NCBI GenBank assembly: GCA_963796105.1
Contig: CAWCKJ010000004.1
Coordinates: 1,280,001-1,344,000, forward strand
Direction of reading: 5' to 3'
Length of the DNA: 64,000 nucleotides
From: a candidate division FCPU426 bacterium
GTDB lineage: Bacteria; Oederibacteriota; Muellerivitia; Muellerivitales; Muellerivitaceae
The notes beneath the pieces were generated by a model, which worked only from the letters and a program-made list of their open reading frames with translations, did not search any database and was not told the origin of the DNA. The position numbers and the translations under genes are program-made. This document shows positions 31,173 through 58,967 of the stretch, piece after piece (the stretch's first letter is position 1; every line of letters starts with the position of its first letter).

Positions 31173-31260
31173 AACCCAAGAAAGCAGTCAAGCTCCATTC
31201 GTTCCAATCATGTAAACCACTCAACTTTGGTAAATTTCGAAAAGCATGGCGCTAGTGATA

Positions 31261-31360
31261 ATCCCCCCTTTGAAAAAGGGGGGTGGGGGGTATTAGCTTT
31301 TGTTGTGTAACACCCAGAGGCTAACTTCCCCTCTATCCCCCTCTTTCAGAGGGGGAAGAT
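31261..31360. repeat. CCCCCCTTT..AAAGGGGGG REP-like palindrome pair
   Basis: ATCCCCCCTTTGAAAAAGGGGGG and TCCCCCTCTTTCAGAGGGGGA. Confidence 0.55.
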
Positions 31361-31455
31361 TAAAAAATCAATAGACCGCAGAGCATTGTGGATAAGTATG
31401 AAAATTCATCATGTTGTCAATCTGAATCCATCCCAATCATGTAAACTACCAATAA

Positions 31456-32925: not shown

Positions 32926-33187
32926 AAATTCTTACTAGCTGTCATTGTGCCGATCATCCATAAAGATAAAATGGAGATCGGTACCAGCCTCAACATCGGA
33001 CTAATGGATGGCCGGCATAAGTTCATTTAGTCTCCGAGTTTTAATGATTGAACGCTCGTGCGCTGATCCGCCTCACCCGCCTCGCGGGTAAAAAAAAAAA
33101 CACACTTATAAAAAGCCATAAAGCCTTTAGAATAAACGCTGGTTCCTTCCCTTTAACGGGTGCCGTGAATCAGCGGCCGATAATAGT

Positions 33188-36100
33188 TTGAAAAAAGGTT
33201 TTTATATGGTTCGGCTATCCCGAATTTCCTCGGACTCCCTCCGCCTGTTTTGTTTCGCTTTTTGCGTTGCCGCCCTTTTTTCGCCGGCCGTATCCCTTGC
33301 CGGCCCGCCCCGGGGGGTGGCGGGGGACCTTTGGGCGGACAAAATTCTCGGCCAATTCGATTTCAGCCAGATCCACGACAACGAGGTCGACGCCAAGAAC
33401 CTCAACAGCCCTACCAGCTCTTACGTGGATATCCTTCATAACATTCTTTACCTGTGGGACGCTGGCAACAACCGCCTCCTGGCCGTCCAAAACCTGAACA
33501 AAGCCTCGACCGGCCAGGGCGCGGACCTGGTCCTGGGACAACCTGATTTTGTACACGCGGGCTGCAACCGCGACTCGGGATGGCAGACCTTCGACTGGCG
33601 GACTTCCCCCAACGGTTTCTATAGCCCGCCCATCCTGCCAAGCGCCGCCTGCCTCTGCAGCCAGTTCTACATGAGCCAATCCCCAGGGGAGAATTCTAGC
33701 CAGGCCAACATGGCCTCCGACGCCCAGGGCAACCTCTACGTGCCCGATTACTACAACAACCGCGTACTTCGTTACAACTACCCCATCACCACCGAGGAAC
33801 CGGCCTCCTACGTTTGGGGACAGCTCGACTCGACCGGCACTCCGCGGTTCGATTTCCAGGCCTATAACAACAACGGCGCGAACGCCGCCGGGGGGCCCAC
33901 CAGCCTGAACCTGGGCTTTTTCAATAATCCCTACAGCGATGAACCCGCCAGCGCTGCCGCCGCAGGCGTTGCCATCGACGCCTGGGGCAACCTCTGGGTC
34001 ACGGACACCATGAACAACCGCGTCCTTCGTTTTCCCAACACCAGCTATCCCGCCGCCGGGGTTCCCTCGACCACGGCTGACGTGGTGCTGGGCCAGGCGA
34101 ATTTCACCTCCGACGTGCCCAACAACAATGTCTCCTCGCTCACCACCATCAACACGCCCAAGGCCGTCCGCGTGGACGTTTCGGGCAACGTGTACGTCTG
34201 CGAGCAGACGACCTACGGCCGAATTTCCTTCTTCACGCCCACCGGGTACACCGGCGCCGGCATGCCAATCTACGCTTTGACGTCGCCCTCCTACGAGTAT
34301 TCGGCCAGTTCCTCCAGCCAGCCCGACGGAATCGAGATCGACCCCACCCTCAACACCTCCACCCAGGTGGGGTTCTGGGTGATCGACCACGACCCGTACA
34401 ACAATTCGCTGGCCTACCACTACGAGGTGACCTGGCCTACATTCAGCATCACCACCCTGCAGACCCTTCACGTTCCGGAAGCCTTCTACGCGGGCGGGGT
34501 CGGCCCGACGGGGGATCTTTACCTGGCCAGTTACCGGGGCATGAGCCTGGAGCATTACCCCGCCGGGTCCTCCTCCCCGGATTCGCTGCAGGTCTTCGAG
34601 GCGCCGACTGGTTCGGCCGGCACCGCGAACCGCATCGGCGACTCGGGTTTGTACGGCGTGAGCAACGTCGTGCTGGCCTCGGCCCCAGGGTCGGGCGTCA
34701 CCCAGCTCATCGGGCCGGGCGGCATCGGCATCCATTTTTGGAATTTGCCGGCCAACGGCCCGGCCGGTTTTACCAACGGCCAGGTGGAGGACGGCTACGC
34801 CGGCACCAGCCAGCCCTACGTCTTCACTTCCACCGGGGGCTACGCGGACCAGTTGGCGGTGGACTCGTCCAATCAATACATTTGGTGCCTCGACGCTTTC
34901 CAGTACCCCTGGGGCCCCATGAGGGTCGACGCCTTCAGCCTGCCCCTTCCCCCGCCCACCTCCCCCGAGGTGAATCCGGCCTATAGGCTCCCATCGTTCC
35001 TTCCGGTCCTGGGAGGGTTCGCCCCAGTAAGCTGGACTAGGTTGACGGGAGTGGCGTCCGACGGCGCCGGAAACCTTTGGATCACCGATGAAATCTCCTC
35101 GAGAGTCATGAGGGTCCGGGACCCGATGGGCAAGGCGGGAGTGGGGCCCATCGTGGACGTCATCCTGGGCCAGCCTAATTCCACCGGCTCGAATTGCAAT
35201 GGAAACGGGCAATGGAACGGGAACGGAACCGTTCCCCCCGGTGCCTGCACCCTTATTGGCGGAGGCGGGAGCGCCGCCACCGGGGAAAGCTCCAATACCT
35301 TTTTTACCCCCAGTTGGCTCCAATTCGACCACCACGGCGATCTCTTTGTCTCCGACCATTACCTGGAAAACGTGGGCAACTACCGGCTGTTGAGGTTTGA
35401 CGCCAAGAGCCTTCCCGTCGGCAACGCGGCCTGCAGTTTTGCAATCCCGGCCGACGGGGTTTACGGCACGGGGGGGAGTTTTACCGTTCCCGGATCGAGT
35501 CCCTACAATAACGCCTATTGGGAGTGCGCCTTCAACTCGGATGACAGCGTCATGGTGGCGGGAACCGACAGCCAGTGGAGCGGGGGTTATCCCCCGGTGA
35601 TCATCCAAAATCCCAGGAACGGAATCATGCCAGCCGGTACGCCCGACATCCCGGGGTTGGGGGACAACTTGGCGGGGCACCTCAACGATTACGCCCCCCA
35701 GTCCTACGGCGTGGCTTTTGACGCGCAAGACAACCTCTACACGATTAACGGCAACCGGGGCGCCATCCTGGTTTATTACAAGCCATTCACCACTTACACG
35801 CCCACCCCCACGCCCACGATCACCCAAACGCCCGCCCCCACCGTGACCGGGACCCTGTCCCCCTCCCTGACACCCACGGTCTCTTCGACTTTCACCCCGA
35901 CCCCCACACCCACCCCCGCCTGCGGCGGCTGTTTGTCGCCGCAAGTGACCTACGGGTCGGGAACGCCGGGGTCAGGGAACGGCCAGCTGAACGGCAACTG
36001 CCAATTGGCCCTGGGAACGACCAACGGCACCGAGTGCGTTTATATCGCGGACATCAACAATAGCCGCGTCGACCAGTTCTACGCCGCCAGCGGGGCCTTC

Positions 36101-38473
36101 ATGGCCAGCTTCAACGGGGTGGACGCGGTCAGGAACCCCAACGGCTTGAGCTCTCCCTACGGGGTGGCCTTGAGCGGCGACGGGCGCTACCTGTTCGCGG
36201 CCAGCACCAACGGCGGCGAAGTGGTCAAGATGGACCTGAACAACAACGGCGCGGTCTCGGCGGTCATCGCGACCAGCCAGCCCTTATACCTCACCGTGGA
36301 CACGGCCGGGAACGGCGACCTCTACGTCGGCAACGGCACCGTCATCACCCGCTATCACGAGCAAACCCCCAACCAGTACGTGACCGTGGGATATTTGGGC
36401 ACGGCTGGCTCGCAAGGGTCGGGATCCAGCCAGTTTTTCGGATGCCTGGGGGTATGGGTCCAGAACGCCGGGAGCACGGTATATGTGGCGGACAGCCGAA
36501 ACGACCGGATCATGGAATGGACGTCCTCCAACGGCGGGGCTTCATACTCTTACGCCGCCACCGTCTATGCCGGCAACCTCAGTCCCGAACAGCTTGCCCC
36601 GGACCCCTCGAATCCCAACAGGGTTTATATGGCCACGACCTATAACGGGTACGCGATCCTGGATATGTCCACCTCGCCGATTTGGTCGGTGGTGTACCTG
36701 TGCGACCCGGAGGGCCAAAGCTACGTGACCGGCATCGGGGTGGATACGGCGTCGGTTTATTTTTCCTTGAACTACCTCGCCAAGGGGGATTCCTTCCCCA
36801 AGCCCTACACCTATTGCCTGACGCCCATTCCCGTTTCGACGGTGACCGCGACCCCCACGGCGACAGGGCCGACCGCTACGCCGACCCCCAGCCCGACCTC
36901 CCTCGCGGTGCTCTCCTGCGGCTCCAGCGGCCAATGGGCGGTTTCCGAGCCCTCGGGGCTCGCCTTGGACCCCTCCGGGAATATCTACCTGGTGGATGAT
37001 TCCACAAACCTCATCGACGTTTATTACCCGAACGGGACGCTGGATACCCATATCGGCGCCGGCCGTTTGACCGCCCCGTCGGCGGTGGCGGTGGACGGAA
37101 ACGGCGTGGTTTACGTCACGGACGAGACCTCCAGCGTCTACACCTCGGGCTCGGCCCAGTACCAGGTGGATGTGTTCAACAGCCTGGCCGGGACGAACCC
37201 CGGCGCCTTTTCCACCAGTTGGGGGACGGCCGCCAGCGGCACCGGGTTGTCGGTGGCGCCTGTGGGGATCGCGGTGAATTCGGCGGGAACCAGCGTCTAC
37301 GTGGCGGACCAGAACCTGAATCAAATCGAGGTTTACAACGGGATCGGGACGCTCCTCAACCATTGGGGAAGTTCGGGAGGGGATGGAAACGGAACGTTCG
37401 GCTATCCGGTGGGGGCGGCCTTGGACGCCTCAGGGAACGTCTATGTGGCGGATTGGTATACGAACCTGGTGCAGGTCTTCTCGCCCCAGGGCACGTGGCT
37501 CCGGCAGTGGGACGTGACCGCTGGGACCGGGCTCTTGGCGGCCCAATTCATTTCGGTTTACCAAAACTGCCTGGTTTACGTGACCGACGGTTTCGGGGAA
37601 GTGGGGGTCTTCGACACCAACGGCAACGCCTTGGGAACAGTGGTCCAAGGAGGGGGCGGGGAATTCATCGACACGGAGGGGGTTGCCGTCGCCTCCGCCG
37701 GGAACTGGTATGTCGCCGACTTGGGCGGGGAATTCGTCAGCGATTTTAACCCCTGCCCCGTGACCCAATGCCCCGCGGTTGATCCGACACCCACTCCTAC
37801 CCAGGCCCCTTCTCCCAGCGCCACCCCAACTCCAACAGCCACGGCTACCCCTACTCTTACGCCTACCCTGACGTCCACACCCAGCCCAACCTTAACGCCC
37901 ACGAATACGCCGACTCCGTCGGCTACGCTCACCGCTAGCGCGACAGCCTCCCAGACCCCAACAGAATCATTAACACTAACTGGGACGCCTACCACGACGC
38001 CAACGCCGACCCCCACGAACACGTCCACACCGACTGTGACGGCCTCGAATACGCCTACGGCCACACCCACCGTCACTTCGACTCAAACCCCGACTTTTAC
38101 CTTAACTCCTTCTTTTACTTGGATTCCCACGATAACGCTTACGCCGACAATCCCATGGACGGCGACTAGCACTCCAGCTTCGGCGAACGTGGTGATCGGC
38201 TTGCCTTATCCCAACCCCGTTTGGGACTCGGGGCCTGTTTCCTTTAACGTCCAGGGTCCCCCAGGCACCGTCTTCACTTGTGACGTATTCACCACGGCGT
38301 TCCGGAAGATTGCGGGCTCCACACAGATGGTATCCGGGTACGATACGCTCCACTGGGATTTGAAGGATATGGACGGCGCCCCCGTGGCCGACGGGCTTTA
38401 TTACCTCCGGGTGAAGGCTGTAGCGGGCGGATCCACGACGGTAAAAATCCTAAAGGTCCTGGTTTTCCGCTAA
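33188..38473 (+). CDS. Large secreted NHL beta-propeller protein with Thr/Pro stalks and FlgD-like C-terminal domain
   Basis: 1761 aa; ADLVLGQPDF and NNRVL repeats; three TP tracts; PYPNP...WDLKD...GLYYLRV terminus. Confidence 0.88.
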   Translation: MKKGFYMVRLSRISSDSLRLFCFAFCVAALFSPAVSLAGPPRGVAGDLWADKILGQFDFSQIHDNEVDAKNLNSPTSSYVDILHNILYLWDAGNNRLLAVQNLNKASTGQGADLVLGQPDFVHAGCNRDSGWQTFDWRTSPNGFYSPPILPSAACLCSQFYMSQSPGENSSQANMASDAQGNLYVPDYYNNRVLRYNYPITTEEPASYVWGQLDSTGTPRFDFQAYNNNGANAAGGPTSLNLGFFNNPYSDEPASAAAAGVAIDAWGNLWVTDTMNNRVLRFPNTSYPAAGVPSTTADVVLGQANFTSDVPNNNVSSLTTINTPKAVRVDVSGNVYVCEQTTYGRISFFTPTGYTGAGMPIYALTSPSYEYSASSSSQPDGIEIDPTLNTSTQVGFWVIDHDPYNNSLAYHYEVTWPTFSITTLQTLHVPEAFYAGGVGPTGDLYLASYRGMSLEHYPAGSSSPDSLQVFEAPTGSAGTANRIGDSGLYGVSNVVLASAPGSGVTQLIGPGGIGIHFWNLPANGPAGFTNGQVEDGYAGTSQPYVFTSTGGYADQLAVDSSNQYIWCLDAFQYPWGPMRVDAFSLPLPPPTSPEVNPAYRLPSFLPVLGGFAPVSWTRLTGVASDGAGNLWITDEISSRVMRVRDPMGKAGVGPIVDVILGQPNSTGSNCNGNGQWNGNGTVPPGACTLIGGGGSAATGESSNTFFTPSWLQFDHHGDLFVSDHYLENVGNYRLLRFDAKSLPVGNAACSFAIPADGVYGTGGSFTVPGSSPYNNAYWECAFNSDDSVMVAGTDSQWSGGYPPVIIQNPRNGIMPAGTPDIPGLGDNLAGHLNDYAPQSYGVAFDAQDNLYTINGNRGAILVYYKPFTTYTPTPTPTITQTPAPTVTGTLSPSLTPTVSSTFTPTPTPTPACGGCLSPQVTYGSGTPGSGNGQLNGNCQLALGTTNGTECVYIADINNSRVDQFYAASGAFMASFNGVDAVRNPNGLSSPYGVALSGDGRYLFAASTNGGEVVKMDLNNNGAVSAVIATSQPLYLTVDTAGNGDLYVGNGTVITRYHEQTPNQYVTVGYLGTAGSQGSGSSQFFGCLGVWVQNAGSTVYVADSRNDRIMEWTSSNGGASYSYAATVYAGNLSPEQLAPDPSNPNRVYMATTYNGYAILDMSTSPIWSVVYLCDPEGQSYVTGIGVDTASVYFSLNYLAKGDSFPKPYTYCLTPIPVSTVTATPTATGPTATPTPSPTSLAVLSCGSSGQWAVSEPSGLALDPSGNIYLVDDSTNLIDVYYPNGTLDTHIGAGRLTAPSAVAVDGNGVVYVTDETSSVYTSGSAQYQVDVFNSLAGTNPGAFSTSWGTAASGTGLSVAPVGIAVNSAGTSVYVADQNLNQIEVYNGIGTLLNHWGSSGGDGNGTFGYPVGAALDASGNVYVADWYTNLVQVFSPQGTWLRQWDVTAGTGLLAAQFISVYQNCLVYVTDGFGEVGVFDTNGNALGTVVQGGGGEFIDTEGVAVASAGNWYVADLGGEFVSDFNPCPVTQCPAVDPTPTPTQAPSPSATPTPTATATPTLTPTLTSTPSPTLTPTNTPTPSATLTASATASQTPTESLTLTGTPTTTPTPTPTNTSTPTVTASNTPTATPTVTSTQTPTFTLTPSFTWIPTITLTPTIPWTATSTPASANVVIGLPYPNPVWDSGPVSFNVQGPPGTVFTCDVFTTAFRKIAGSTQMVSGYDTLHWDLKDMDGAPVADGLYYLRVKAVAGGSTTVKILKVLVFR

Positions 38474-38772
38474 ACCCAGATCAGATGGCACGACGGTATT
38501 TAGCGGGTTGGAACAATCACCCTGAAGCGGCACAATCCCCGAAAAAGGCCTGATTACTTAGTTTAGGAAAACGGTGCCCTAATCCTGAACTCCCAATTGT
38601 GGATAATTCGAGAGCCTCAATACAGGCTCTGCCGATACCACCAACTGGAGCCTGCGGTGAGGACATTCGGCTGAGCCACCCACACCGTCAAAGAACTCCA
38701 TAAAAAGTGCCATCCAAGGGAGATGGAAGCGAGTTAGAAGTTGTTTCACGGGGTTTACAATAATTGGCTTAA

Positions 38773-39855
38773 ATGTTTACAACTTATTTTATAAGGTTTA
38801 CAATCTTATCCATGGACCACAGCCCGCATAAAACACGAAGAATGGAAATACGCCAATTCATTGTCGCGAAGGTGCGCGAAAACGCGGCTCACTTGACGGA
38901 AACGGTCAAAAACAATTTTAAAATCAGCCGGCAAGCGGCATTCAAACACGTAAACACCTTAGTGAAAGAAGGCTACCTGAACGCTAAGGGTAAGACTAAT
39001 AACCGTACTTATGAGCTGGGCGCGAAAAGATTTTTACGCTTTAAGACGCTTATCGATTCTTCGGCGAGTGAGGACCTGATATGGTCGAAGAATTGTTCGC
39101 CTCTTTTTCAAGGACTCAAAAACAATGTCCTTCATATTTGCGAATATGGAGTAACTGAAATGATTAATAACGCCATAGATCATTCGGAAGGCAAACACCT
39201 GGAAGTTATTGTTGAAATCAGTCCAAAGGAAATATTGATCCGGGTTAATGACGATGGAATCGGGATATTTAATAAAATACAAAGGGAACTGAAGCTGCCG
39301 GACCCAAAACTCTCGATACTCGAACTGGCAAAAGGGAAATATACGACTGATCCTAAAAGGCACTCGGGTGAAGGCGTGTTTTTTACCTCGAAAATATTCG
39401 ATTATTTTATGATCCAATCAGAGGGGTTGGTTTTTTCGCATGGGATAAATATAAAGTTTGACGCCTTATTGAACGTTGAAGACGCGGGAAAAAACGGAAC
39501 CCATGTCACTATGGTCCTGGACCCGCTCACGAGAAGGACCACCAAAGCGGTTTTTGATGAATTTACCGATAAAAACCTTACATTTGATAAAACGATTGTG
39601 CCTGTTGAATTGGCGAAATTCGAGGAGGGAAATTTGGTATCACGGTCCCAAGGAAAAAGACTTGTGGCTAGGTTCGAAAAATTTAAAAATGTGATACTCG
39701 ATTTTAAAAATGTTAATACCATTGGCAGGCCGTTTGCTGACGAGGTTTTTAGGGTGTTCCCAAGCGAGCATAAAAATACCCATTTGATGCCCGTAAACGC
39801 CAATAAAGGGATTTTGGATACGATAAAGTCCATGCAAAGTGGAAATGCCATTTAA
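38773..39855 (+). CDS. wHTH + HATPase + STAS-like (DUF4325) protein
   Basis: ISRQAAFKHV HTH, EMINNAIDHS, DDGIGIF, HSGEGVFF, LVSRSQGK..LDFKNV..FADEVF. Confidence 0.85.
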   Translation: MFTTYFIRFTILSMDHSPHKTRRMEIRQFIVAKVRENAAHLTETVKNNFKISRQAAFKHVNTLVKEGYLNAKGKTNNRTYELGAKRFLRFKTLIDSSASEDLIWSKNCSPLFQGLKNNVLHICEYGVTEMINNAIDHSEGKHLEVIVEISPKEILIRVNDDGIGIFNKIQRELKLPDPKLSILELAKGKYTTDPKRHSGEGVFFTSKIFDYFMIQSEGLVFSHGINIKFDALLNVEDAGKNGTHVTMVLDPLTRRTTKAVFDEFTDKNLTFDKTIVPVELAKFEEGNLVSRSQGKRLVARFEKFKNVILDFKNVNTIGRPFADEVFRVFPSEHKNTHLMPVNANKGILDTIKSMQSGNAI

Positions 39856-39979
39856 AGGCTTGTTGTTAAGCTGATAATCACACCTAAATTCAGAATTCAA
39901 AACTCAAAATTTAACATTTGTTTTCAGGATGTCCTCAGGTTCCAAGCCTGTCTCCCGAAGCTTAATGCGTAGGGAGGGC

Positions 39980-40483
39980 AAGTTCCGGAGTTCTGGGCCT
40001 GTTCTCGGGTTCCCGCCTAGTTCCCGGGTTCCGGGGTTCCGGGCTAGTTCTCGGGTTCCCGGCCAGTTCCTGTCACACAATAACCCAGTTCCAGAAGCGC
40101 CAACCCAGTTCCCGGCACCCGGTAACCCACTCCAGGGCGCTAACCCAGTTCCCGGCACCCGGTAACCCAGTTCCGGGAGCACCAACCCAATTCCCTAGAC
40201 TCGGTAACCCAGTTCCGGAAGCGCCAACCCAGTTCCCGGGTTCCGGGGTTCTATGGTCATGAGGACGGCGCCTATGAACATTTTGGGGTCCTCTATGGTC
40301 ATGAGGCCGGGGTCCTATGAACATGGCCGATTCTCCTATGATCATGGGGCCGGAGTCCTATGAACATGGCCGGACCTCCTATGGTCATTTTGCCGAGTCC
40401 TATGAACATGGCGGGTTTTTAGGCTGGCCGCCTATGGTCATGGCACGATTGGCACAATCCAGGATCGCCGTTGGCACAATAAC
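39980..40483. repeat. Tandem-repeat array, left part (GTTCCCGG, AACCCAGTTCC, CTATG(A/G)(A/T)CAT and TGGCACAAT blocks)
   Basis: AACCCAGTTCC units every 18-22 bp at 40081-40236; CTATG units every 21-22 bp at 40251-40410. Confidence 0.85.
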
Positions 40484-40512
40484 TGGTGTGCGCCCCAAAC
40501 CTTGGACAGTTT

Positions 40513-41349
40513 TTACTCCAAGTTGAGAATAGGTTTTCCGGCGATTGGTTTGAGTGACTTTAAAGCCTCGAACTCCTCAGGCGGCATGTAGCCGATAGAA
40601 GAATGCAACCGTTTTTTGTTATACACCTCCTCGATGAAGTATGGAAGTCTTTGAAGCACTTCCTGATAAGTTTCGTAATTGAATAGATGCACCTCCTCAT
40701 ATTTCAAGGTTTTGAAAAAGGATTCCGCATTTGCATTGTCGTAAGGGTTGCCTGTCCTGGACATGCTGATCCTTAATCCTTTGGACTCAAGCAGGGCCAC
40801 GTAATCCCAGCAGGCATATTGCACCCCTCTGTCTGAATGGTGGATGCATCCCGGAAGAGGATTCCTTTCCTCTAAAGCCATGCGTAAAGCCGAAAGCGAC
40901 AACTCCCGATCCAGTCTCTTGGAAACCGCCCACCCGATCACCTTTCTGGAAAAACGATCCAGAATGGCCGCCAGATAAACAAAGCAAGTGAGGATTCGGA
41001 TATAGGTAATATCCGCCACCCACACTTGATTGACAGCAGTTTCTGCCACCCTTTCCAAGAGGTTGGGGAACACCGGCAGGTCGTGATTGGATTGGGTGGT
41101 TTGGATCTTGAACCTTTTCCCCCAAATAATAGGGTAAAGACCGTATTTCCTTACCACCCGCCGAATCCGTTTGGCGTTAATCCTTAATCCCTCCCGTAAA
41201 AAGTGGTGGTAGAGCCTCCGATAGCCGTAGTAGGGGAAGGTCAATCTCACCTGCTCGATTCGGTTCTTTAAGTCCAAATCTCTTTGTTCCTGAATCTCCG
41301 GTTCACTTTTAAGTGCAGAATAATAGGTACTTCGAGGAAGCCCCATCAT
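40513..41349 (-). CDS. IS3 family transposase OrfB (DDE, rve)
   Basis: YGYRR, WVADITYI, HHSDRGVQY, DNANAESFFKTLK, RLHSSIGY. Confidence 0.95.
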   Translation of the reverse strand: MMGLPRSTYYSALKSEPEIQEQRDLDLKNRIEQVRLTFPYYGYRRLYHHFLREGLRINAKRIRRVVRKYGLYPIIWGKRFKIQTTQSNHDLPVFPNLLERVAETAVNQVWVADITYIRILTCFVYLAAILDRFSRKVIGWAVSKRLDRELSLSALRMALEERNPLPGCIHHSDRGVQYACWDYVALLESKGLRISMSRTGNPYDNANAESFFKTLKYEEVHLFNYETYQEVLQRLPYFIEEVYNKKRLHSSIGYMPPEEFEALKSLKPIAGKPILNLE

Positions 41350-41693
41350 TTGGCATCCTCTTGAAATTGAGCCAAATTCCTTGAGGTGATCACGGAGGTA
41401 TCGAGCTTTCTCTGGTTTTCCGCGTATTTTTGGAATTTTTTTAAAAGGTCTATCGCCATGATCAATTCCCCAATCTTGGCTTTGAGTTTCTCATTCTCTT
41501 TTTCCAATATTTTTTCGTGAAGGGAAGGTTTTTCAACCAAGGTTCCTTGGCGATATTTATCGCGCCAACGGGTTATAACGCTTGGATTGAGCTGGTATTG
41601 ACGAGCAGCTTCATTGAGCGATAGGCCAGTTTCTACCTCGTGGACGACTTGTTCTTTGAAATCAATACTGAACTTCCGTCTTATTTTACCCAT
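41346..41693 (-). CDS. IS3 family transposase OrfA (HTH)
   Basis: RRKFSIDFK..AARQYQLNPSVITRW, leucine zipper; ATGA overlap with orfB. Confidence 0.92.
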   Translation of the reverse strand: MGKIRRKFSIDFKEQVVHEVETGLSLNEAARQYQLNPSVITRWRDKYRQGTLVEKPSLHEKILEKENEKLKAKIGELIMAIDLLKKFQKYAENQRKLDTSVITSRNLAQFQEDAK

Positions 41694-41787
41694 TTGGAAA
41701 TGCTCCTTTGGGGGGTTACCCCTTGAGCCGTTTCCCTATTCTCTATTTTTTGCTTCAACTGTCCAACTTGTAGGGCGCGTTCCAAAC

Positions 41788-42825
41788 CTGGGATAAACCG
41801 CCCACATTCCTGCCCGCAGGTTTCGGGATTTGACGGTTTGGCTCAATCGCTCCGAAGTGGCACAATCCCCAAAAAGTGGCACAATCGGACAAATAAGCTG
41901 GTGTCAGATAAAACTGTGGTTTTATTGGTGTTTTTAACAAACCGTTTTTGATTGTGCCACCCGATTGTGCCAATTGTGCCACTCGGTTTTACCGGGTTTG
42001 GCACAATCGCCCCGAAGTGGCACAATCCGGCTCCGTGGAAAATGAGGATAAACCGCCCACATTTCCACCGGTAACCCGGGATAACCTGGTGACAGCTACG
42101 GTATTTCCGTCGGCAACCTAGGATAACCTGGTGACACCTTTCGGCATTTTCGCCGGTAAGCCGGGATAACCTGGTGACACCTACCGGTATTTCCGCCGGT
42201 AAGCCGGGATAACCTGGTGACAGCTACCGGCATTTTCGTCGGTAAGCCGGGATAACCTGGTGACACCTACCGGCATTTTCGTCGGTAAGCCAGGATAACC
42301 TGGTGACACCTACCGGCATGGGAGGATAAACCGCCCACATTTCCGGCGACATTAGGGTGGTTAACACCTGCTGTTAACACCGTGATTTTATTGGTGTTAA
42401 CGCTTAGGGCGACTGTTAACACCGCGATTTTATTGGTGTTAACACTTGGTGTGACTGTTAACACCTCGATTTTGTTGGGCCTAGGAACATGCGCCGGAAA
42501 CCCAGTCGGATAGGGCGATAAACTGCGGGCCGCCCGGGGGTTCAAGCCGTGGGCGAAGCTTGCCAGTGCAGATTTATATAGAATCTGTGCCCACATTTCC
42601 ATCGGCAACTGTCGGCATGTAGGAAAACCCGTTCACTAAGCGGAAAACCCAGTTCACTAAAGCCCAAAACCCGGTTCACTTAGGCCCAAAACCCAGTTCA
42701 CTAAAGCCCAAAACCCGGTTCACTGGGTCGAAAACTTAGTTCATTGGAAACAAAAATCCAGTTCACTAATGCTGTTGGGGCCACTATTTCCGCCGACGGT
42801 GAGGATAACCCGCCCACATTTCAAT
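41788..42825. repeat. Tandem-repeat array, right part: four repeat blocks separated by GGATAAACCGCCCACATTTCC
   Basis: Blocks TGGCACAATC, GGATAACCTGGTGACA (6x, 42-43 bp), GTTAACAC (42-bp period), AAAACCC(A/G)GTTCACT (7x, 20-22 bp); delimiter at 41791, 42046, 42324, 42589 (partial), 42803. Confidence 0.88.
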
Positions 42826-42952
42826 CATCATTTCCGGAAATGGCGATTCAAAAAATCCATAGTCAATTATTGGCTTGCTCCTTTGAAACCCACAAAAGAT
42901 GATTGGAGATCGCGGGGTAAAAGAGGACCGAATAAGCAAAAAAGGATGAGCC

Positions 42953-43705
42953 ATGGAACAAAATAAGGGTTATGAGAAGGAATTGAGAAGAATCCCCGCC
43001 AGCCGGGTGAGGATCAGCGATCGCATACCCCAATTGTTCTCGGACCCGAACGCGTTGGAAAAGAAAGCTCTGTCCATGAACAGCACCCCTTTTGTGGACC
43101 GCATCAAGGTCCGGCCCCTGACGGAGGAGGAAAAAGAGGAAGATCCCGACCACGACTTCGAGCTTTTCTACGGCGTCCTCACGTTGAAAGGCGCCCAAAT
43201 GCTGGGATGGGCCGAATTGGACGCCTATGTTTTCCAGGTCAGCTTGGAAGATTCCATCACATTGAACCACTTGGAATACCGCTATACCGAGCCCCTGACC
43301 TGGATCGAGACCTACAAGGGGATGGAAAAAATACTGAGGGAAAAACCGGATATGCCCGTGGAGCGCCTGGCCATCCAATTGCGGGAAGACCCCGTGCTGG
43401 CGAAGAAAGTCATGCGGGCCGTGAAGCTCATCAATGAAGGCGCCATGGACGCCATTTGCGTGAGCGTCCAAAACTGCCATGAGGGGAGTATTGACCTGGG
43501 GGGATACCGTTTCCGAATGGAGTTCGCGGTCCCGTTGGCCAAGCTGGAAAATATGGACCCGGACTCCCTCAAGATTGAGGCCCTTGTCGAGAGAACCGTG
43601 AAAATCGCCATCGACAACGAGATGGATATGGACGATATGCTGGACCTGGTGGATTGGGTGCTGGAGGGCAATGAACCTGGGGATTTTTATACTGAGGAAG
43701 CTTGA
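42953..43705 (+). CDS. Degenerate ParB/Srx-like protein
   Basis: IKVRP..FELFYGVLTLKGAQMLGWAELDAYV..LEYRYTEPLTWIE..VERLAIQL follows the ParB pattern YELIAGERRLRAA..ENLQREDL..QEELA. Confidence 0.65.
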   Translation: MEQNKGYEKELRRIPASRVRISDRIPQLFSDPNALEKKALSMNSTPFVDRIKVRPLTEEEKEEDPDHDFELFYGVLTLKGAQMLGWAELDAYVFQVSLEDSITLNHLEYRYTEPLTWIETYKGMEKILREKPDMPVERLAIQLREDPVLAKKVMRAVKLINEGAMDAICVSVQNCHEGSIDLGGYRFRMEFAVPLAKLENMDPDSLKIEALVERTVKIAIDNEMDMDDMLDLVDWVLEGNEPGDFYTEEA

Positions 43706-43723
43706 GCCGATCGCGGCTTTAAA

Positions 43724-43879
43724 TTAACTGCTGGTGGTCACCCCTGCTGTATTGGAATTGAATCCGGTTTGGGTATCATGGCCGAATATTTTCACCGCGG
43801 CGATGACCGCGACCGCTATTAAAGCAACTATCAAGAGGTATTCCGCCATCCCTTGGCCTTTTTGATTTAGCTTTTTCAT
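43724..43879 (-). CDS. Flp family type IVb pilin
   Basis: KGQGMAEYLLIVALIAVAVIAAV prepilin motif; GGAGG RBS. Confidence 0.85.
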   Translation of the reverse strand: MKKLNQKGQGMAEYLLIVALIAVAVIAAVKIFGHDTQTGFNSNTAGVTTSS

Positions 43880-44040
43880 GAATAAAACCTCCCAGTCTTT
43901 GTGCACTTAAAACCATTTAGAAGTGTTTCCCTAATCTTTATTCTTGATCGATGGATTATTTTAATATTACCTGGTTTTTCTTTAAATTGTTGTTTCCACA
44001 AAATCCCTCAAAAATTCTGCCCAAAACGGCAAAGCTGGGC

Positions 44041-44142
44041 TGAAGATTAAAAGAAGTTGGCAGAAGATGAGAAGTTAGCGCAAAAGCTGATAAAGTGATG
44101 AATGATCACTGCCACACGCTGCGGAGCGTGTGGCCAGACCCC
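44041..44142 (+). mobile_element. Remnant 3' end and right TIR of the Y1 transposase element
   Basis: Matches 58721-58798 (AEDEKLAQKLIK*, then CCAGACCCC) with an inserted hairpin. Confidence 0.8.
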
Positions 44143-44356
44143 TATGTTTACTTAAAGTTGGAATAATTTTTTCTTTAGAAAGTTTATAAATAGCCCTACT
44201 TACACCATAAAAAACATCTGATTTATATTCAGCTGATAGGTTATCAATAGACAAAACAAACCACCTTTATACTTTGGCCAGCTCCTGCTTTTGGGAGCTT
44301 TTTTCAACCGAAAGTTCGAATCCAGCGAAGTCGAAAACCTTTTCAACCGTTAGGGA

Positions 44357-44671
44357 TTAACTGGCTTTGCGGAAATCAAAACTAATGTCGAGATGTGCGC
44401 CACAGGCGGCGGCGATCTTTTGAAGAAAACCCAAAGAAGGGATGGACCGGTAAACTCCACTTTCAACCCGGGAAATGCCGCTTTGTTTGGTCCCGATCCG
44501 CCGGGCCAACTCCTTCTGGGTAAATCCCGCGCGTTCACGGGCTTTGCGGATGGCCCCGGCCAAACGGAATTTTTCCTCCTGCTGTTTGGCCAAAATCCGG
44601 ACTTCGGGGTCCCTTTCGAGCTTTTTAAAAAAGCCTGTCGGGTCGTAATACGGTTTATTGTTCTTTTTCAT
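44357..44671 (-). CDS. XRE-family HTH antitoxin (HigA-like)
   Basis: ARERAGFTQKELARRIGTKQSGISRVESG; overlaps the toxin stop. Confidence 0.88.
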   Translation of the reverse strand: MKKNNKPYYDPTGFFKKLERDPEVRILAKQQEEKFRLAGAIRKARERAGFTQKELARRIGTKQSGISRVESGVYRSIPSLGFLQKIAAACGAHLDISFDFRKAS

Positions 44672-45002
44672 AAGCTAAAACCTCCTTCATCCTTTTCCAA
44701 GCCAACTCAAAATCCAGCCTGGATATCTTTTGCGTCTTCTTCTTGAACGCGTGAAGCCAAAACATTTTAGGGCCGGACACCAAAACATAAGCTATCCGGT
44801 ATGAACCATCCAAACCCCTGAATTTTATTTCCCAAAGCTTCCCCTCGATTGGTTTAAAGATGACGTATGGGAACTTCAAACCCTCGCGCTCAATCCCCTT
44901 CCAAACATCCGAAAACAAGACTTTGTCATCTTTCGACAACCCCGAGATAAATTCCTCGACGGGTTTCCGGCCGGAAGGGGTTTGGTAGAAGTCCACTTTC
45001 AT
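44655..45002 (-). CDS. RelE/ParE (Gp49/DUF891-like) toxin
   Basis: FYQTPSGRKPVEEF, LWEIK, LHAFKKKTQK. Confidence 0.88.
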   Translation of the reverse strand: MKVDFYQTPSGRKPVEEFISGLSKDDKVLFSDVWKGIEREGLKFPYVIFKPIEGKLWEIKFRGLDGSYRIAYVLVSGPKMFWLHAFKKKTQKISRLDFELAWKRMKEVLAYEKEQ

Positions 45003-45140
45003 AATCAGAGTATAACACATATGTTATGTCCTAAAAAGGCCAAAAATGTGCCGGGTAGCGCCGCATGCGGCGGCCCCCCGGCGGGGCTGGAAGGTTAATC
45101 CCCTATTGCGGGATTTCCTTCAGGCTTTGCTCGAGAAACA

Positions 45141-45889
45141 GGGGTCAGGCCACACGCTCCGCAGCGTGTGGCAGTGATCATTCATCACTTTACTGTCCGC
45201 GTCACAACCGCGCAGGACATTTGTACCAGGGGCGTTATAAGGCGATTTTGGTCCATAAGGATAGTTATTTAAAGGAATTATGCAGGTATGTGGTCTTGAA
45301 TCCGGTCCGGGCCAAGATGGTCAAGCATCCGAAGGAATGGAAATGGAGCAGTTACCGGGCTACGGCAGGTTATGAGACCGAGCCGGAATGGGTGGAAAAT
45401 AAATGGCTTTTGGAACAGTTTGGAAAAGTGAAACATAAGGCGCAGGGTTTGTACCGGAAGTTCGTGTTGGAAGGTTTGAGGAAGAAAGAGAGCCCATGGG
45501 AGCAAGTAACATCGCAGATCATATTGGGGGGGGAAAGTTTTGAGGAGCACATTAAAGGGAAGATTAGGGGGAAGCATCACCATGAGGCGCACAGGGAACA
45601 ACGGAAATTGGGCTTGCCGGATGCCGAGGAAACGCTGAAAAAGATCGGGAAAATGCATGGGATTATGGTGAAAGATATGGTGGTTCCGACCCGGCAGAAA
45701 AACGAAGGGCGGGAAGCGGCGGTATGGGCCTTGCGTCAGATATGCCGATTAAGTTTAGGGGAAGTGGCTAAGAAGATGGGGGTAAAATACTCCGCGGTAA
45801 GCCATGCGGTGGCAAGGATGAAGAAACGCATTCGGGAGGAAAAGGGTCTTGAGGAAAAGATTCGTAATGCCGTTTTCAAGACCTGACCC
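45141..45889 (+). pseudogene. Internally deleted Y1/RAYT-like transposase element (left TIR fused to the 3' half of the gene)
   Basis: GGGGTCAGG TIR at 45141 is joined to HNRAGHLYQGRYK..RYVVLNPVRA..WSSY; HUH motif missing; ends in CCTGACCC. Confidence 0.85.
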
Positions 45890-46158
45890 TTATTTTCTCT
45901 GTTTGCCTGATCCGCGACGTAAACATTTCCGGAGCCATCAACCGCTACGCCACTAGGAGCGTAAAATGTTGCGTTTGTCGCGGGGCCATTGGTGGCCCCC
46001 GTGACTCCGGCTTGACCAGCCAGGATTGTTACCACGCCGCCATTTTAATGCGAGGTGGGTGCGGTGGGATTGTTGCTTTTACTGCAGGCGAAGGGAGAAA
46101 AAAATAGAAAAGCTAAAAAGAAGAGTCCGGAACCCAGAAGATAAAATAGTCGGCGCAT
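45890..46158 (-). pseudogene. Truncated NHL-repeat lipoprotein gene
   Basis: Lipoprotein leader (..FACSK), in-frame TAA at 46045-46047, one NHL repeat cut at the transposon end. Confidence 0.7.
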
Positions 46159-46257
46159 GCTTAGCCCTCCATAAATATATTTAAGAAACAAGAATAGCAC
46201 CGATCTCGATATATTTTTATGGTAGATCGGCACATGGGGAAACCTCCCGGAAAAAAA

Positions 46258-48063
46258 TTAATAAGTAAACTGCATGCAAGTAGAGGGCGCGCTTTCACCC
46301 CCTCCGTTATAAGCTTTTACAAAGAAATATCCGGTTGAAGTACACATTCCCAAAACATTATTTATACTCGTTCCCGTGACAGTGTTAGGCCAAGAAGCGG
46401 CGCTTGAGCAAGAGCTGCCAATATAGACTATGTACCCAGTACAATTGCTGACCGGGTCCCAAGATAGGGTGTCATTGATATCTTGATAGCCGCAGCAAGG
46501 CATATAGCAAAGCTGGTTTCCGCAACATTCAACTGCGGATAAATTCGTCGGCGCGGTTGGAGGAATAACCGTAATTGTGGGCGTTGGGCTTGTCGTGGCT
46601 GTTGGGGACAGGGTAATGGTCGGCGTCCATGTGATAGTGGGCGTCCTTGTAATAGTAGGTGTAGTTGTTGGAGTTGCCGTAGGGGGCGCATTGATGATTT
46701 GAACGTCGTCGATATATAGGTTGCCCGATCCTCCCGGTGACATACCCCAAAAACCGATGCCGATGGAAATTATTTGCGAAGGATCGCCTCCACTTGACCC
46801 GGGCACCACCGTGACCGGTATCCACAAACCCGAATTTATCCCCGCAACTGGGGCTATTGAACTCCCATTTTCAACTTGGGTAGTGGGCCCGCCCAGGATG
46901 CTCTGGCAAAGAATATTGATGTAGGTGTTTCCGTTCGCCACCAAGGAAGAATCCGCCATAACCCACGCTATTATTTCCTTGCCAGTCAGGTTTTGGGTGG
47001 AACCGTACCAAATCAGAATGGACCCATTACCCATTGTCGTTCCCATGTAGGTGACGGAGGCATCCAAAGCCCCTCCTCCGTTATGATAAATGCTATTCGA
47101 GATGTCCAAATTGATGCCGGTATCCGTATTAGTCCAGGGGTGCCAGCACTCCAAACTATTGTCAAAGGTGTATGAAGAAAGTACGCTGTTAGGCGCACAA
47201 AAAGTGGCCGTGGAAGTGGGGGTAAATATCGAGGTTGATGTCAGGGTGGGGGTATAAGTCGGGGCGCCAGGGGCCAAAGTCGGGCTGGGAGTCGGCGTAA
47301 GGGTGGCCGTAGAGGTATAGGTGGGGGTCGGAAGGTTCGATATCTGGACTTCGTCAATATAGAAATTGCCCGCAGCCCCTGCGGGAATGTTGTTTAATGA
47401 CACGCCCAATTCCAGCACCTGGGAAGGGTTGACACTTCCCATACCGGATCCAACCACCAAGGTCAAAGGTATCCATTGACCCGTATTGTTTCCCGCGTTG
47501 AGCGGCGTTTGGCTGCCACCTTCCCAAACAGCGGAGGACCAATTGGGTCCAGTCTGGTCCACCAATTGTAAATAGGTCGCCCAATTGGAGGCCGTTAATC
47601 CGGCATCCACGTATGCCCAGGCAGTGATTTGTTTTCCAGTTAAATCTTGGGGTGTACCAAACACTATTTCCAGCGTCGCTAGGACCTGAGTCGCCGCCGC
47701 GTTTTGTATGAAAGTGTGCAACGATCCCGTGCCGTTATGGAATACGACGCTTGAAATATCCAAGCTGTTGATGGTGGCTCCATTAGTCCAGGTTTGCCAG
47801 CATTCCAGGTTGCTATCGAATGTATATTGCGGAAGATAACTGGTTGGATTGCAGGATGTGGCTGTGGCGGTCGGGGTTGATGTCGGAGTGGAAGTCCAGC
47901 CGTTCAAATTGGTTGGGGTCGAGGTGACTGTCGGAGTATTCGTATTGCTATGACTGCCGGATGGCGAAGAGGGACTTCCCGATTTACTGCAAGAGGTTGG
48001 TAATAACCCAATGAACAAAAGCATGAATAAGCTGAAACACAGCGAATAAAAGAGCTGGCGCAT
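46258..48063 (-). CDS. Lipoprotein with TP stalks, two repeated CBM-like beta-sandwich domains and a Cys-rich FN3-like tail
   Basis: PTSC lipobox; duplicated YTFD..LECW..QDLTGK.I.AW..YIDxVQI; PTAPTNLSA..VKAYNGGGES. Confidence 0.75.
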   Translation of the reverse strand: MRQLFYSLCFSLFMLLFIGLLPTSCSKSGSPSSPSGSHSNTNTPTVTSTPTNLNGWTSTPTSTPTATATSCNPTSYLPQYTFDSNLECWQTWTNGATINSLDISSVVFHNGTGSLHTFIQNAAATQVLATLEIVFGTPQDLTGKQITAWAYVDAGLTASNWATYLQLVDQTGPNWSSAVWEGGSQTPLNAGNNTGQWIPLTLVVGSGMGSVNPSQVLELGVSLNNIPAGAAGNFYIDEVQISNLPTPTYTSTATLTPTPSPTLAPGAPTYTPTLTSTSIFTPTSTATFCAPNSVLSSYTFDNSLECWHPWTNTDTGINLDISNSIYHNGGGALDASVTYMGTTMGNGSILIWYGSTQNLTGKEIIAWVMADSSLVANGNTYINILCQSILGGPTTQVENGSSIAPVAGINSGLWIPVTVVPGSSGGDPSQIISIGIGFWGMSPGGSGNLYIDDVQIINAPPTATPTTTPTITRTPTITWTPTITLSPTATTSPTPTITVIPPTAPTNLSAVECCGNQLCYMPCCGYQDINDTLSWDPVSNCTGYIVYIGSSCSSAASWPNTVTGTSINNVLGMCTSTGYFFVKAYNGGGESAPSTCMQFTY

Positions 48064-48223
48064 GCTTAGCCCTCCATAAATATATGTAAGGGGCTAACAT
48101 AGTACCGATCACGATATATTTTTATGGCAGATCGGCACATGGAGAGACCCCCAAAATTATTTATAAAATCCAAAAGGAAAAAAACCTTCGGAAGTCTCCC
48201 CTACGATTAGAAACAACCGGCAA

Positions 48224-48252
48224 ATACTACACTTGATATATAAGTTGGTCAA
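48224..48252 (-). promoter_or_regulatory. Sigma70-type promoter
   Basis: TTGACC-17 bp-TAGTAT; the same boxes occur at 53676-53704. Confidence 0.65.
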
Positions 48253-48294
48253 CAAAGCTAAGCACGGAAAACCATTCTGATTCGGTGATATTCG

Positions 48295-49512
48295 TTAAAA
48301 CGAAATACCAATGTCCCACATGAGCACATCGTAAAGCTTCGAGCCGAATATAAATGTGTCCCGCAATCCGCCTTTGAAATATATCTTTCCCAGTTGTCGA
48401 ACCATTCCCACTTTCAGTACGGCCATAGGATCTTGCTCATTACCAAGATATGTCTCACCAATGCTGATAGTTTGGTTTAAATTCGATTTTCCGCCCTCGA
48501 TAGAAATATAGGCTGGTTCGGATTCAATAAATAAATCTTCCCCATTATCATCCTTGAGATTCTGGCCGTTTTTATCCTTCAGAAATGTTTTTCCTTTTAA
48601 AAAGAAAGTAAATCCCCCGGATAAATCAGTCTCCGTGATTGAGGATGACCCCCCTGAACTCAGGGCCATGAAATCCAATAACAAATCGTCATAAGCGACA
48701 GATCCGGATAAATAAACCGGACCAGCAATATGGATACCGACGGAGCCTTCAATTCCGATTCCGAAATAAACGTCCCCTAATGTGGCGAAACCAAATTGGG
48801 GTTCAATATCCAAATAGAGGGGGTCATTGAACGTCCAACGTGACCCCGTAGATTGGGCCCCCACGGCGGCGCTCGATTGAGGATTCGAAGTCAAGGCCCC
48901 AGCTTCCGTCAATTTCACCTTACTCAGATCGAGGCTTTTTCCGATGGACATGAAAAGTTTCCGGTATTGGGGGAAATCCAACGCGGTGGAACAGCCGTAC
49001 AAGGCGAAACCCACCTTCCCTTTCTCAAACATGAAAACGACGGTTCTCAGTTCGGTTCCAAGCATTTTGTATGTGTAAATGGCGTATTTCCCATGAGAAT
49101 GGGCCGCCTTGATATTTCCTGTCTTTTCAATCTTGAACCCCTCCAACTCGGCTGATATGAATTTAAGGTGTTGATTTACAAATTCATCCAGGGGCAAGTT
49201 CGAACTCAGGGCCTTTGTCACGAAGGTGACATGCTCATTGTTGTTATTAGATGAGGGTCTATCCGCCTCCATGCGAACAAGATAATTACCCACGGTCTGT
49301 TTCATCTCCTTGGGTGGCCACTCAGCAGGAAGTAAGAAGGAAACGTTTTCGGGGGCGTATGTGTAGAGGGTTGTCGGAAGGGATAGCGCTACGGGAGGAC
49401 TGGCCTTTTTCGTTTGGTCCGCCAGGCAGGGGGTCAACGCCAGCGATATCGTCACTAGAAATTGCGCCGAAACCAACAACAAACTTTTACTTGAGAAAAT
49501 TTTATTCAACAT
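48295..49512 (-). CDS. Secreted protein: PsbP/DcrB-like N-terminal domain plus probable outer-membrane beta-barrel
   Basis: Signal peptide; SFLLPAEW..F..IGKSL; alternating strands ending WDIGISF. Confidence 0.6.
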   Translation of the reverse strand: MLNKIFSSKSLLLVSAQFLVTISLALTPCLADQTKKASPPVALSLPTTLYTYAPENVSFLLPAEWPPKEMKQTVGNYLVRMEADRPSSNNNNEHVTFVTKALSSNLPLDEFVNQHLKFISAELEGFKIEKTGNIKAAHSHGKYAIYTYKMLGTELRTVVFMFEKGKVGFALYGCSTALDFPQYRKLFMSIGKSLDLSKVKLTEAGALTSNPQSSAAVGAQSTGSRWTFNDPLYLDIEPQFGFATLGDVYFGIGIEGSVGIHIAGPVYLSGSVAYDDLLLDFMALSSGGSSSITETDLSGGFTFFLKGKTFLKDKNGQNLKDDNGEDLFIESEPAYISIEGGKSNLNQTISIGETYLGNEQDPMAVLKVGMVRQLGKIYFKGGLRDTFIFGSKLYDVLMWDIGISF

Positions 49513-49578
49513 CAGATCGCCTCCCTGAAATATTTACTTCTATTATTAATGAATCAGTCTCTATCAATTATTAACTGA

Positions 49579-49818
49579 TCAACGAACGATGATATGTCCG
49601 CTCGGCACCTGGGAACTTGCCGTTTTATGTTGACTCTTGGATTTCAAAGGAAAAGGGGGTGGTTTTAATTTTCCTTTTTCCACATTTTTCATCGGCCCCG
49701 AATAAGGCGGACGGGTATGTACTCTTTTATGCTTCGCCTTCGGTATAGCTTGCTGGGCCCAAACTGTTGACGCGCAGAGGATTAATCCGGCCATCACGAT
49801 CATGATTATATTTCTCAG
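49579..49818 (-). CDS. Small basic secreted protein (CTG 49818 or ATG 49803 start)
   Basis: AAGGAGG 5 nt before CTG; signal peptide ending VWA|Q; K/R/P-rich mature part. Confidence 0.6.
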   Translation of the reverse strand: MRNIIMIVMAGLILCASTVWAQQAIPKAKHKRVHTRPPYSGPMKNVEKGKLKPPPFPLKSKSQHKTASSQVPSGHIIVR

Positions 49819-49867
49819 TGAATCCTCCTTAAAATTCCCGCCAATTATTCCTTGTTTCCTGGGTTCA

Positions 49868-52405: not shown

Positions 52406-52437
52406 CTCACTTTCAATCTAATAGGATGAATTTAATA

Positions 52438-58798: not shown

Positions 58799-58806
58799 AT
58801 TGTTCC

Positions 58807-58967
58807 GGGGTGGGGGAAAGCGCGGTGGGAAACCGATTGATGAAGATCAAAAAAAGGTTGGCGGAAGACGAAAAGTTTGCACGAAAGCTGATAAAGTGAT
58901 GAATGATGGCCTGACCCCATTGTTCTTGAGGAAAAGATTCGTAATGCTGTTTTCAAGACCTGACCCT
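58807..58967 (+). repeat. Stacked extra right ends: 120-bp-period duplication of the 3' end, then the 3' end of the second transposase variant
   Basis: 58807-58918 repeats 58687-58798; 58925-58970 matches 45848-45893. Confidence 0.88.

Follow-up and report, generated by a model that had tools for sequence, protein, structure and literature searches.

At positions 39977-43705 of a 64,000-nucleotide stretch of DNA from a candidate division FCPU426 bacterium (GenBank assembly GCA_963796105.1, contig CAWCKJ010000004.1), a series of different tandem-repeat blocks stands in non-coding DNA beside a ParB-like gene, which raises the question of what the blocks are and which protein would read them. 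The whole stretch is called the window and corresponds to G000:C4:1280001-1344000, where G000 is the source genome and G001 a genome of the same genus; coordinates are window positions unless a contig is named, and block letters are labels of this analysis. The original prediction was that the blocks may be a library of different protein-binding sites. Our analysis supports this notion through a ParB-derived protein family tied to the arrays (39 of 40 genes with an array upstream, and motif bases that follow the protein column aligned with ParB residue R173), whose predicted sites the motifs would be.

The ParB-related family divides in two: full-length members, in which the ParB N-terminal region is kept, and helix-turn-helix-only (HTH-only) members, which start at the DNA-binding domain (DBD). 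We found 40 HTH-only genes in 9 of 99 genomes of the phylum, all within one taxonomic family. A phased 21/22-bp array was located within 600 bp upstream of 39 of them, compared to 0 of 13 chromosomal ParB-like genes and 13 of 600 random G000 genes, and the same test over 700 bp detected none upstream of 32 full-length members, a set that excludes the window gene and one frameshifted gene. The lone HTH-only gene without an upstream array, L074, has an apparent transposase end there instead, and all five metagenomic HTH-only loci (3 distinct) had an upstream array. The arrays of these array-gene cassettes have the same orientation as the gene, end about 17-170 bp before its start and consist of 5-30 sites of a motif of ~10 bp that differs from gene to gene, with up to 7 paralogs of different motifs per genome. 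Such home arrays were assigned in G000 to motifs P (C2:127179), D (C4:723883), X (C4:1195673), A (C12:11205) and G (C2:368417 and C12:331466). Four of the window blocks (G, A, D and X) thus have a home gene in G000, and none was found there for B, C, E and F.

HTH-only proteins consist of a DBD, a linker and a hydrophobic segment, to which a PDZ-like tail is added in the majority, and the CTPase domain is absent. A family profile searched against the PDB matched Noc, Spo0J and ParB structures, the best being Noc (E 8.5e-23). For an AlphaFold2 model of the L030 HTH-only domain (pLDDT 87), ParB/Noc ranked first in both Foldseek (E 0.02) and VIA (ParB DBD-parS, 6s6h; Z 7.5, root-mean-square deviation 3.3, 99 aligned). 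By hydropathy, 35 of the 39 HTH-only proteins with a motif (36 genomic, 3 metagenomic) had a hydrophobic segment, and lysine and arginine residues were more numerous on its DBD side (100 vs 59). The C-terminal region common to most of these proteins gave weak PDZ signals and no Pfam match at threshold; PDZ-containing clusters were returned for it from the ESM Atlas at 0.76-0.88, which is a lead only, and one full protein gave no usable match. At E<=1e-10 the family comprised 81 clusters among 1.84 billion representatives, and 54 clusters at E<=1e-30. An array joined to the gene of a CTPase-less, predicted membrane-spanning ParB-type protein is an undescribed architecture of the ParB/Noc kind; no description of the array or protein family was found in the literature searched, for which coverage of subscription papers was incomplete.

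Covariation of protein and motif suggests that the former may read the latter. An unframed Mantel scan gave a whole-domain correlation of r 0.33. Motifs were then aligned automatically to a common 12-base frame, in which some are misframed (e.g. L094, L090) and were kept unchanged. With the rest of the domain partialled out, the last four motif bases correlated with the HTH start and the recognition helix (family-wise error-corrected p, pFWER, 0.0015-0.0135; n=39), and this HTH signal persisted after removal of 5 near-duplicates (pFWER 0.008 and 0.047). R173 and G201 are described as base-contacting specificity residues (PMC7383237). The column aligned with R173 predicted motif positions 10, 11 and 12 (p 0.019, 0.001 and 0.011; 8 positions tested, n=34 non-redundant), and where this column is Arg the motif has AC in 8 of 8 cases, compared to 2 of 26 otherwise. 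A helix of the form [SG][QHR][IL]T was associated, post hoc, with a motif ending in (G/A)GCA (7/8 vs 0/26), and in a tree that omits the HTH the GGCA-motif genes do not group as a single clade (approximately unbiased test, p=0.0007). Other points count against this assignment. In the unframed scan the signal was highest in the loop before the HTH and in two later helices, and the recognition helix did not stand out (pFWER at least 0.16); nothing clear was seen for the G201-aligned column (best p 0.023); both groupings, Arg/AC and helix/GGCA, were taken from the same data; and the structure scores alone are modest, with no Foldseek match at E<=0.001 and a VIA Z below 8. Taking these together, the motifs are very likely the binding sites of the HTH-only proteins, as far as sequence can tell.

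The window arrays are part of a dispersed repeat family. A de novo periodicity scan of G000 detected 145 segments, 129 of which were linked via common words; 61 of the 129 were Thr-rich coding repeats and were removed, and the 68 segments kept (28,907 bp) merged into 50 non-coding loci, 28.9 kb in total. Long composite stretches are common to different loci, such as 541 bp at 88% between the window and C2:49803, and the copy number of D varies from 3 to 10. Loci range from one motif to seven, the window being the richest mosaic. G016 has mosaics of other motifs, while G022 and G023 have arrays without genes. At L006 (G022:C10:29874), a 17-bp unit that includes the C motif TGGCACAATCC is repeated in 26 perfect copies. 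Genes with an ORF6N domain adjoin several arrays and cassettes (G000 C4:428751 and C12:11738; L077), Pfam confirming one in G000 and one in L077. Motif X was counted 63 times in G000, 99 times in G001, and not at all in 29 other family genomes or in a reversed control; these counts and the Tandem Repeats Finder (TRF) scores rule out a chance origin. The suspicion that the blocks might be a decayed ORF or an assembly artefact was not borne out either, since the 22- and 43-bp periods break the reading frame, G001 has the same modules, and public short-read contigs, possibly from the source sample, match the D block and span both junctions of the IS3-family insertion sequence (IS).

Sequence reading, TRF (scores 146-380 for the window blocks), a repeat finder and motif counts, on which the block calls are based, found the named repeat blocks where the original prediction had placed them. 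They are not unrelated, as had been thought, and share the common frame ttcC-cggt-gaca. The C motif (TGGCACAATC-type) occurs in 7 forward and 3 reverse copies, GGATAACCTGGTGACA of the D block in 6 copies 42-43 bp apart, and GTTAACAC of the E block in 5 copies, in part with a 42-bp period. X, which had been read as a constant delimiter in a repeat-cassette-repeat layout, is whole at 41792, 42047, 42325 and 42804, and its supposedly partial copy at 42589 proved to be complete but interrupted by a 64-bp insert with 7 blast matches in G000 and matching stretches in G001. X has a home array of 14-15 copies with a gene of its own, and it joins its neighbours in helical register like other motifs, thus being a peer motif and not a delimiter. 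A CRISPR- or integron-like cassette array was rejected on similar grounds, as X makes its own tandem array and blocks are common to many loci. In the window, junction distances are 43 bp (A-B), 33 bp (X-D), 10 bp (D-L) and 21 bp (L-X); over all loci, 44 of 56 distinct types of heterotypic junction deviate by no more than 1.6 bp from a multiple of 10.7, where 30% are expected. Comparison with relatives, proposed as a check for cassette gain or loss at the delimiter, showed the same modules in other orders in G001. Arrays were absent or different at the 3 orthologous G001 positions examined. The IS3 element, present in 10 genome copies of 95.8-100% identity, is a recent insertion, and because an AAC duplication flanks it, it entered a pre-existing array.

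The gene next to the array was predicted to be ParB-like and possibly to serve the locus. Its ParB-like identity holds in part: relatives match ParB_N (6 of 7 scanned, 3 of them above cut-off) and the profile matches Noc/ParB, while the 250-aa protein itself has no Pfam or NCBIfam match. A genome search with the gene detected relatives in 21 of 99 phylum genomes, with up to 9 matches each, and protein database searches returned only itself, or nothing among longer proteins. A single-sequence AlphaFold2 model of the window protein reached pLDDT 38 and was set aside. The protein aligns with the second, degenerate domain of the tandem ParB proteins of its relatives and has GVLTLKG where GERRxRA, the motif of the ParB N-terminal CTPase domain (PMC7333895), is expected. 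No parA lies next to it; G000 has a normal parAB at C4:1.579 Mb (parA C4:1578836) and, separately, a canonical parS-like site near dnaA. Of the 33 full-length-type genes tested, it alone has a phased block (F) upstream, so that a link is conceivable, but F stands elsewhere without it, and the close relatives of the gene have no upstream arrays. The proposed service of the locus by this gene is not supported, given the missing GERRxRA and parA and the lack of arrays at all 32 other genes of its type. On these features, the window gene is probably not the reader of the array, and the likely readers are paralogs encoded elsewhere.

These results also bear on the proposal that iterons or centromeres captured from plasmids or phages make up the locus as a library punctuated by a delimiter, which would act as decoys or as a multi-specificity partition locus for the adjacent ParB-like protein. 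The helical phasing and multiple specificities of the locus are real, and the adjacent gene is both ParB-related and unique among the full-length-type genes tested in having a phased block upstream. However, window positions 41780-42830 gave no DNA match to 72,556 plasmids and 50,697 phages, no plasmid or phage match was obtained for the protein domain and no Rep was present among the neighbours scanned, the modules belong to the genome itself, where they stand at 50 loci, X is like any other motif in having its own array and gene, the protein has neither GERRxRA nor a parA partner, its close relatives have no upstream arrays, and the genome has a normal parAB. We therefore regard capture as highly improbable.

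The full-length paralogs have a different kind of repeat. A variable 17-27-bp palindrome is located in the coding sequence just after the HTH in 17 of 31 domain hits, compared to 0 of 31 control segments, and its two arms change together; these palindromes are possibly self-encoded binding sites. Carriers are L040, L045, L048, L049 and L096-L115, and in G000 the genes at C3:264435-265805 and C3:513318-516080. One full-length member in G000 has a five-unit palindrome repeat that is also found as a mosaic module, and the same palindrome occurs in G022 (L114). The internal palindrome is absent from the window gene. The NCBIfam model nucleoid_noc matched neither HTH-only nor window proteins and gave full-length paralogs 36-65 bits against a cut-off of 315.

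Cassettes are found among heterogeneous neighbours, with no parA, Rep or conserved recombinase or transposase among the 52 scanned. Behind one orthologous gene, G000 has the D array with L030 and G001 has the X array with L057, the two sequences diverging just past the stop codon. L030 and L031 have similar tails (60/81) but not DBDs (44/131), while L031 and L057 have similar DBDs (111/132) and motifs but not tails. This swap and this pattern of sharing indicate that an array and its DBD travel as one unit. Copies no more than 300 bp from an array numbered 5 of 5 for IS21b, 9 of 13 for IS21a, 5 of 10 for IS3, 6 of 13 for RAYT and 1 of 30 for IS1595, against a background of 6.3% of non-coding DNA, the query copies for these counts having come from array-adjacent sites. 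The preference of IS21 for arrays (14/18) compared to IS1595 (1/30) suggests family-specific targeting.

Array and gene could be a selfish or mobile cassette. In this case the protein, bound to its array, would direct where a borrowed transposase or recombinase inserts the cassette, and an even spacing of loci, described below, would reflect target immunity and not a benefit to the host. Heterogeneous neighbours with no fixed partner gene, the swap at one site between the congeners G000 and G001, and the presence of IS21b, IS21a, IS3 and RAYT near arrays far above background, unlike IS1595, would all suit this explanation. We nevertheless consider it unlikely. HTH-only proteins contain no recombinase or transposase domain and none is conserved beside them; no relative was found in viral contigs, plasmids or phages; and the IS copies inspected had entered arrays that were already there, each making its own duplication. 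Terminal inverted repeats, fixed terminal modules and target duplications common to array ends were not seen by eye, and synteny breaks at the arrays checked. Beside orphan arrays, a search for gene remnants gave weak partial matches near two arrays (iE 0.2-0.7), read as array translation, and at 17 loci of four other genomes it matched only the known gene.

On the five contigs with at least three loci, the spacing of array loci was more even than expected from random placement among intergenic gaps (coefficient of variation 0.45 vs 0.89, p=0.0002); even spacing persisted under a looser locus definition (p 0.0002-0.003), and an IS1595 control was random. Mean spacing on C4 is about 80 kb. Noc sites are missing at the terminus; here, the largest gap between loci on C3 (173 kb, C3:316864-489633) includes the point where gene strand switches, which was taken to be the terminus, a single case in a draft genome. 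At 35 of the 50 loci there was a motif that has its home gene in G000. Of 50 loci, 44 are polar, and 37 of these follow the inferred leading strand; with a gene strand bias of 71%, this is hardly above expectation (p=0.039), which weakens the tether reading below, and polarity was discarded as independent evidence.

We believe these data could be explained by a row of CTPase-less ParB domains in the membrane that bind tandem half-sites on one face of the DNA, so that evenly spaced arrays and mosaics would serve as chromosome-membrane tethers; from the sequence evidence, we give this reading a probability of about 0.5. The tether role is the weaker step, compared to the identification of motifs as protein sites. 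Each motif would be the site of one paralog of the predicted membrane-spanning ParB/Noc-type proteins, which, having lost the ParB CTPase and dimerisation domains, may recognise half-sites that are not palindromic, and DBDs lined up in the membrane would engage sites two turns apart on the same face. The home array may provide autoregulation or self-tethering. Gene-less array copies are dispersed and stacked into mosaics, e.g. the window locus; the mosaics presumably arose through in-register recombination between related 21/43-bp units, and dispersed and mosaic arrays might recruit several paralogs together. A more elaborate version is a tentative one: a programmable anchoring system in which diversifying CTPase-less membrane ParB domains have private half-site arrays read by a simple code, arrays are seeded about every 80 kb, mosaics act as multi-address anchors, and a periplasmic PDZ-like domain couples envelope state to tethering.

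Further observations count against the tether reading. Eight contigs, about 790 kb, have no locus at all, and 15 of the 50 loci have no motif with a home gene in G000, a genome 96.8% complete; motifs B, F, N, L, Q, T, W and K have no home gene there. In-register recombination alone would preserve phase, and target immunity alone could yield even spacing. Hydrophobic segments are also present in 11 of 20 full-length paralogs, yet these have no arrays. Short or truncated paralogs (219-253 aa) exist in G000, and that at C12:331839 is cut by a RAYT element. The HTH-only family is patchy (9 of 31 family genomes), and therefore not essential.

Membrane-bound one-component regulators, for which the topology of ToxR and CadC is the model, offer another explanation. 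The HTH-only proteins would be such regulators, their home arrays autoregulatory operators, and the dispersed arrays functionless satellite copies that are spread by recombination and act as IS sinks. Arrays end in promoter position, about 17-170 bp before the start; the proteins have DBD-TM-PDZ-like topology (TM, transmembrane helix); 11/22-bp direct repeats are typical of head-to-tail regulators; many motifs have no home gene; and arrays are absent or different at the three orthologous G001 positions, all of which would agree with this explanation. Even spacing of loci and 5-30 sites per home array would be unexpected for operators plus neutral junk. Membrane or secreted genes were not enriched among array neighbours (32/76 vs 1218/3181, p=0.55), which also gives no sign of transertion, and therefore no regulon is evident. 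We judge this explanation somewhat unlikely, and retain tethering as the preferred reading.

The features of the locus are listed in Table 1.

Table 1. Repeat blocks, insertions and gene of the array locus, in window coordinates.
Feature	Position	Strand	Remarks
G/U block, GTTCCCGG-type units, 8/19/27-bp periods	39977..40070	+	reverse complement is the motif of arrays before HTH-TM-PDZ genes C2:369087 and C12:331839
A block, 8 x AACCCAGTTCC, spacing 18-22 bp (copies 40082-40226)	40082..40239	+	home array of 22 copies before HTH-TM-PDZ gene C12:11142
B block, 9 x CCTATG(A/G)(A/T)CAT, spacing 21-22 bp, last 32 (copies 40251-40432)	40251..40442	+	A-B junction 43 bp, in phase; home gene in G000 not found
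C-type motifs TGGCAC(A/G)AT, left side of IS3	40441..40481	+	
IS3-family element	40484..41784	-	orfA 41346-41693, orfB 40513-41349; 3-bp AAC target duplication
X motif, then 12 bp on a Q motif CCTGCCCGCAG	41791..41822	+	
C module, direct and inverted TGGCACAATC / GATTGTGCCA copies	41835..42030	+	block also copied to other loci
X motif GATAAACCGCCCACATT	42046..42066	+	home array of 14-15 copies (C4:1195673) before HTH-TM gene C4:1196536
D block, 6 x 43-bp unit with GATAACCTGGTGACA; secondary L/S motifs 10-21 bp away	42060..42319	+	home array before HTH-TM gene C4:724386
X motif, 21 bp past last L motif, in phase	42324..42345	+	
E block, palindromic TGTTAACAC units, 42-bp period	42358..42478	+	
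X motif interrupted by 64-bp dispersed hairpin-bearing insert (42527-42590)	42516..42600	+	
F block, 7 x AAACCC(A/G)GTTCACT, spacing 20-23 bp	42624..42769	+	close to A motif; home gene in G000 not found
Last X motif	42803..42823	+	
Degenerate ParB-like gene, 250 aa	42953..43705	+	ParB-N-like region without GERRxRA, HTH, helical part

A low-GC gene with HTH, HATPase and STAS-like (DUF4325) domains (38773-39855), single copy and with no match in G001, adjoins the array on the left. To the right is a RAYT-like HUH transposase remnant (45065-45886, within a region 44060-45886) with inverted hairpin-repeat copies near 44100 and 45140-45190, which enclose a Gp49/HTH toxin-antitoxin pair (44357-45020). 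The region is flanked by large secreted NHL-repeat and Pro/Thr-stalk proteins (29748-38473 and 46258-53589), one with a weak match to a FlgD-Ig-like tail. Further away are a two-copy 120-bp repeat (58687-58925), a second RAYT copy nearby (~58057) and a partial cas1 (60629-61036, minus strand). An Rfam scan of 38400-46500 gave three matches, all far below gathering score, and a tRNA search of the window gave none; promoter (8 vs 4.4 expected) and terminator (5 vs 5.8 expected) scans were uninformative.

Several known systems resemble parts of this architecture. Noc of Bacillus with its NBS sites is similar in that it has a ParB-family DBD with specificity changed at few residues, including the R173 position, many chromosomal sites and membrane association (PMC7383237, PMC7333895). 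It differs in several respects: Noc keeps the CTPase domain and nucleates on a 16-bp NBS, while HTH-only proteins lack that domain, are predicted to be anchored by a transmembrane helix with a PDZ-like tail, have non-palindromic ~10-bp motifs in phased tandem arrays, and occur as up to 7 paralogs per genome with different motifs. NBS sites of Noc are palindromic. Chromosomal ParABS systems share the DBD fold, and binding of ParB to half a parS is documented (PMC7333895, PMC7022226). The full-length paralogs described here carry a palindrome within their own gene. The B. subtilis spo0J gene likewise carries a parS. Of the ParABS features, the ParB-type HTH was found for the window gene and HTH-only family, and the GERRxRA CTPase domain, an adjacent parA and origin-near palindromic parS were not: the 50 loci are evenly spread instead of origin-clustered, and direct repeats replace palindromes.

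In plasmid iterons and direct-repeat centromeres, as in the cassettes, phased direct repeats of 21-22 bp immediately precede the gene of the presumed binder. The arrays described here are chromosomal, with about 50 loci and many stacked specificities, and in place of a Rep or ribbon-helix-helix adaptor the predicted binder is a membrane protein. BOX, BIME and NIME elements are also dispersed intergenic mosaics of modules with variable tandem copy number, and hotspots for other elements (PMC3049150). In contrast to them, the arrays have phased motifs, a conserved head and a variable tail, no visible fixed terminal modules or inverted repeats, and for each array motif a linked, co-varying DNA-binding protein gene. 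Transmembrane transcription activators such as VtrA/VtrB, and transertion, show that a transmembrane protein can use its DBD to capture a genomic locus at the membrane (PMC9977878); VtrA/VtrB have another DBD family, and our arrays have no neighbouring membrane-gene regulon. TIGR-Tas consists of a Nop-domain Tas gene and 36-nt units with variable spacers (PMC12045711). It was rejected here, as G000 has no PF01798 match and the periods are 21/22/42/43 bp with constant cores.

The HTH-only family gives an otherwise unexplained repeat family a likely partner protein, and the arrays also point to family-specific targeting by IS. Some 40 natural pairs of a ParB/Noc-fold protein and its predicted site, which differ in specificity, make the evolution of ParB specificity directly testable, and the pairs could be used as orthogonal parts for DNA labelling or tethering. 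If the arrays are bound as proposed, they would form a sequence-encoded lattice of chromosome-membrane anchors, which would bear on the old question of how the chromosome is attached to the envelope.

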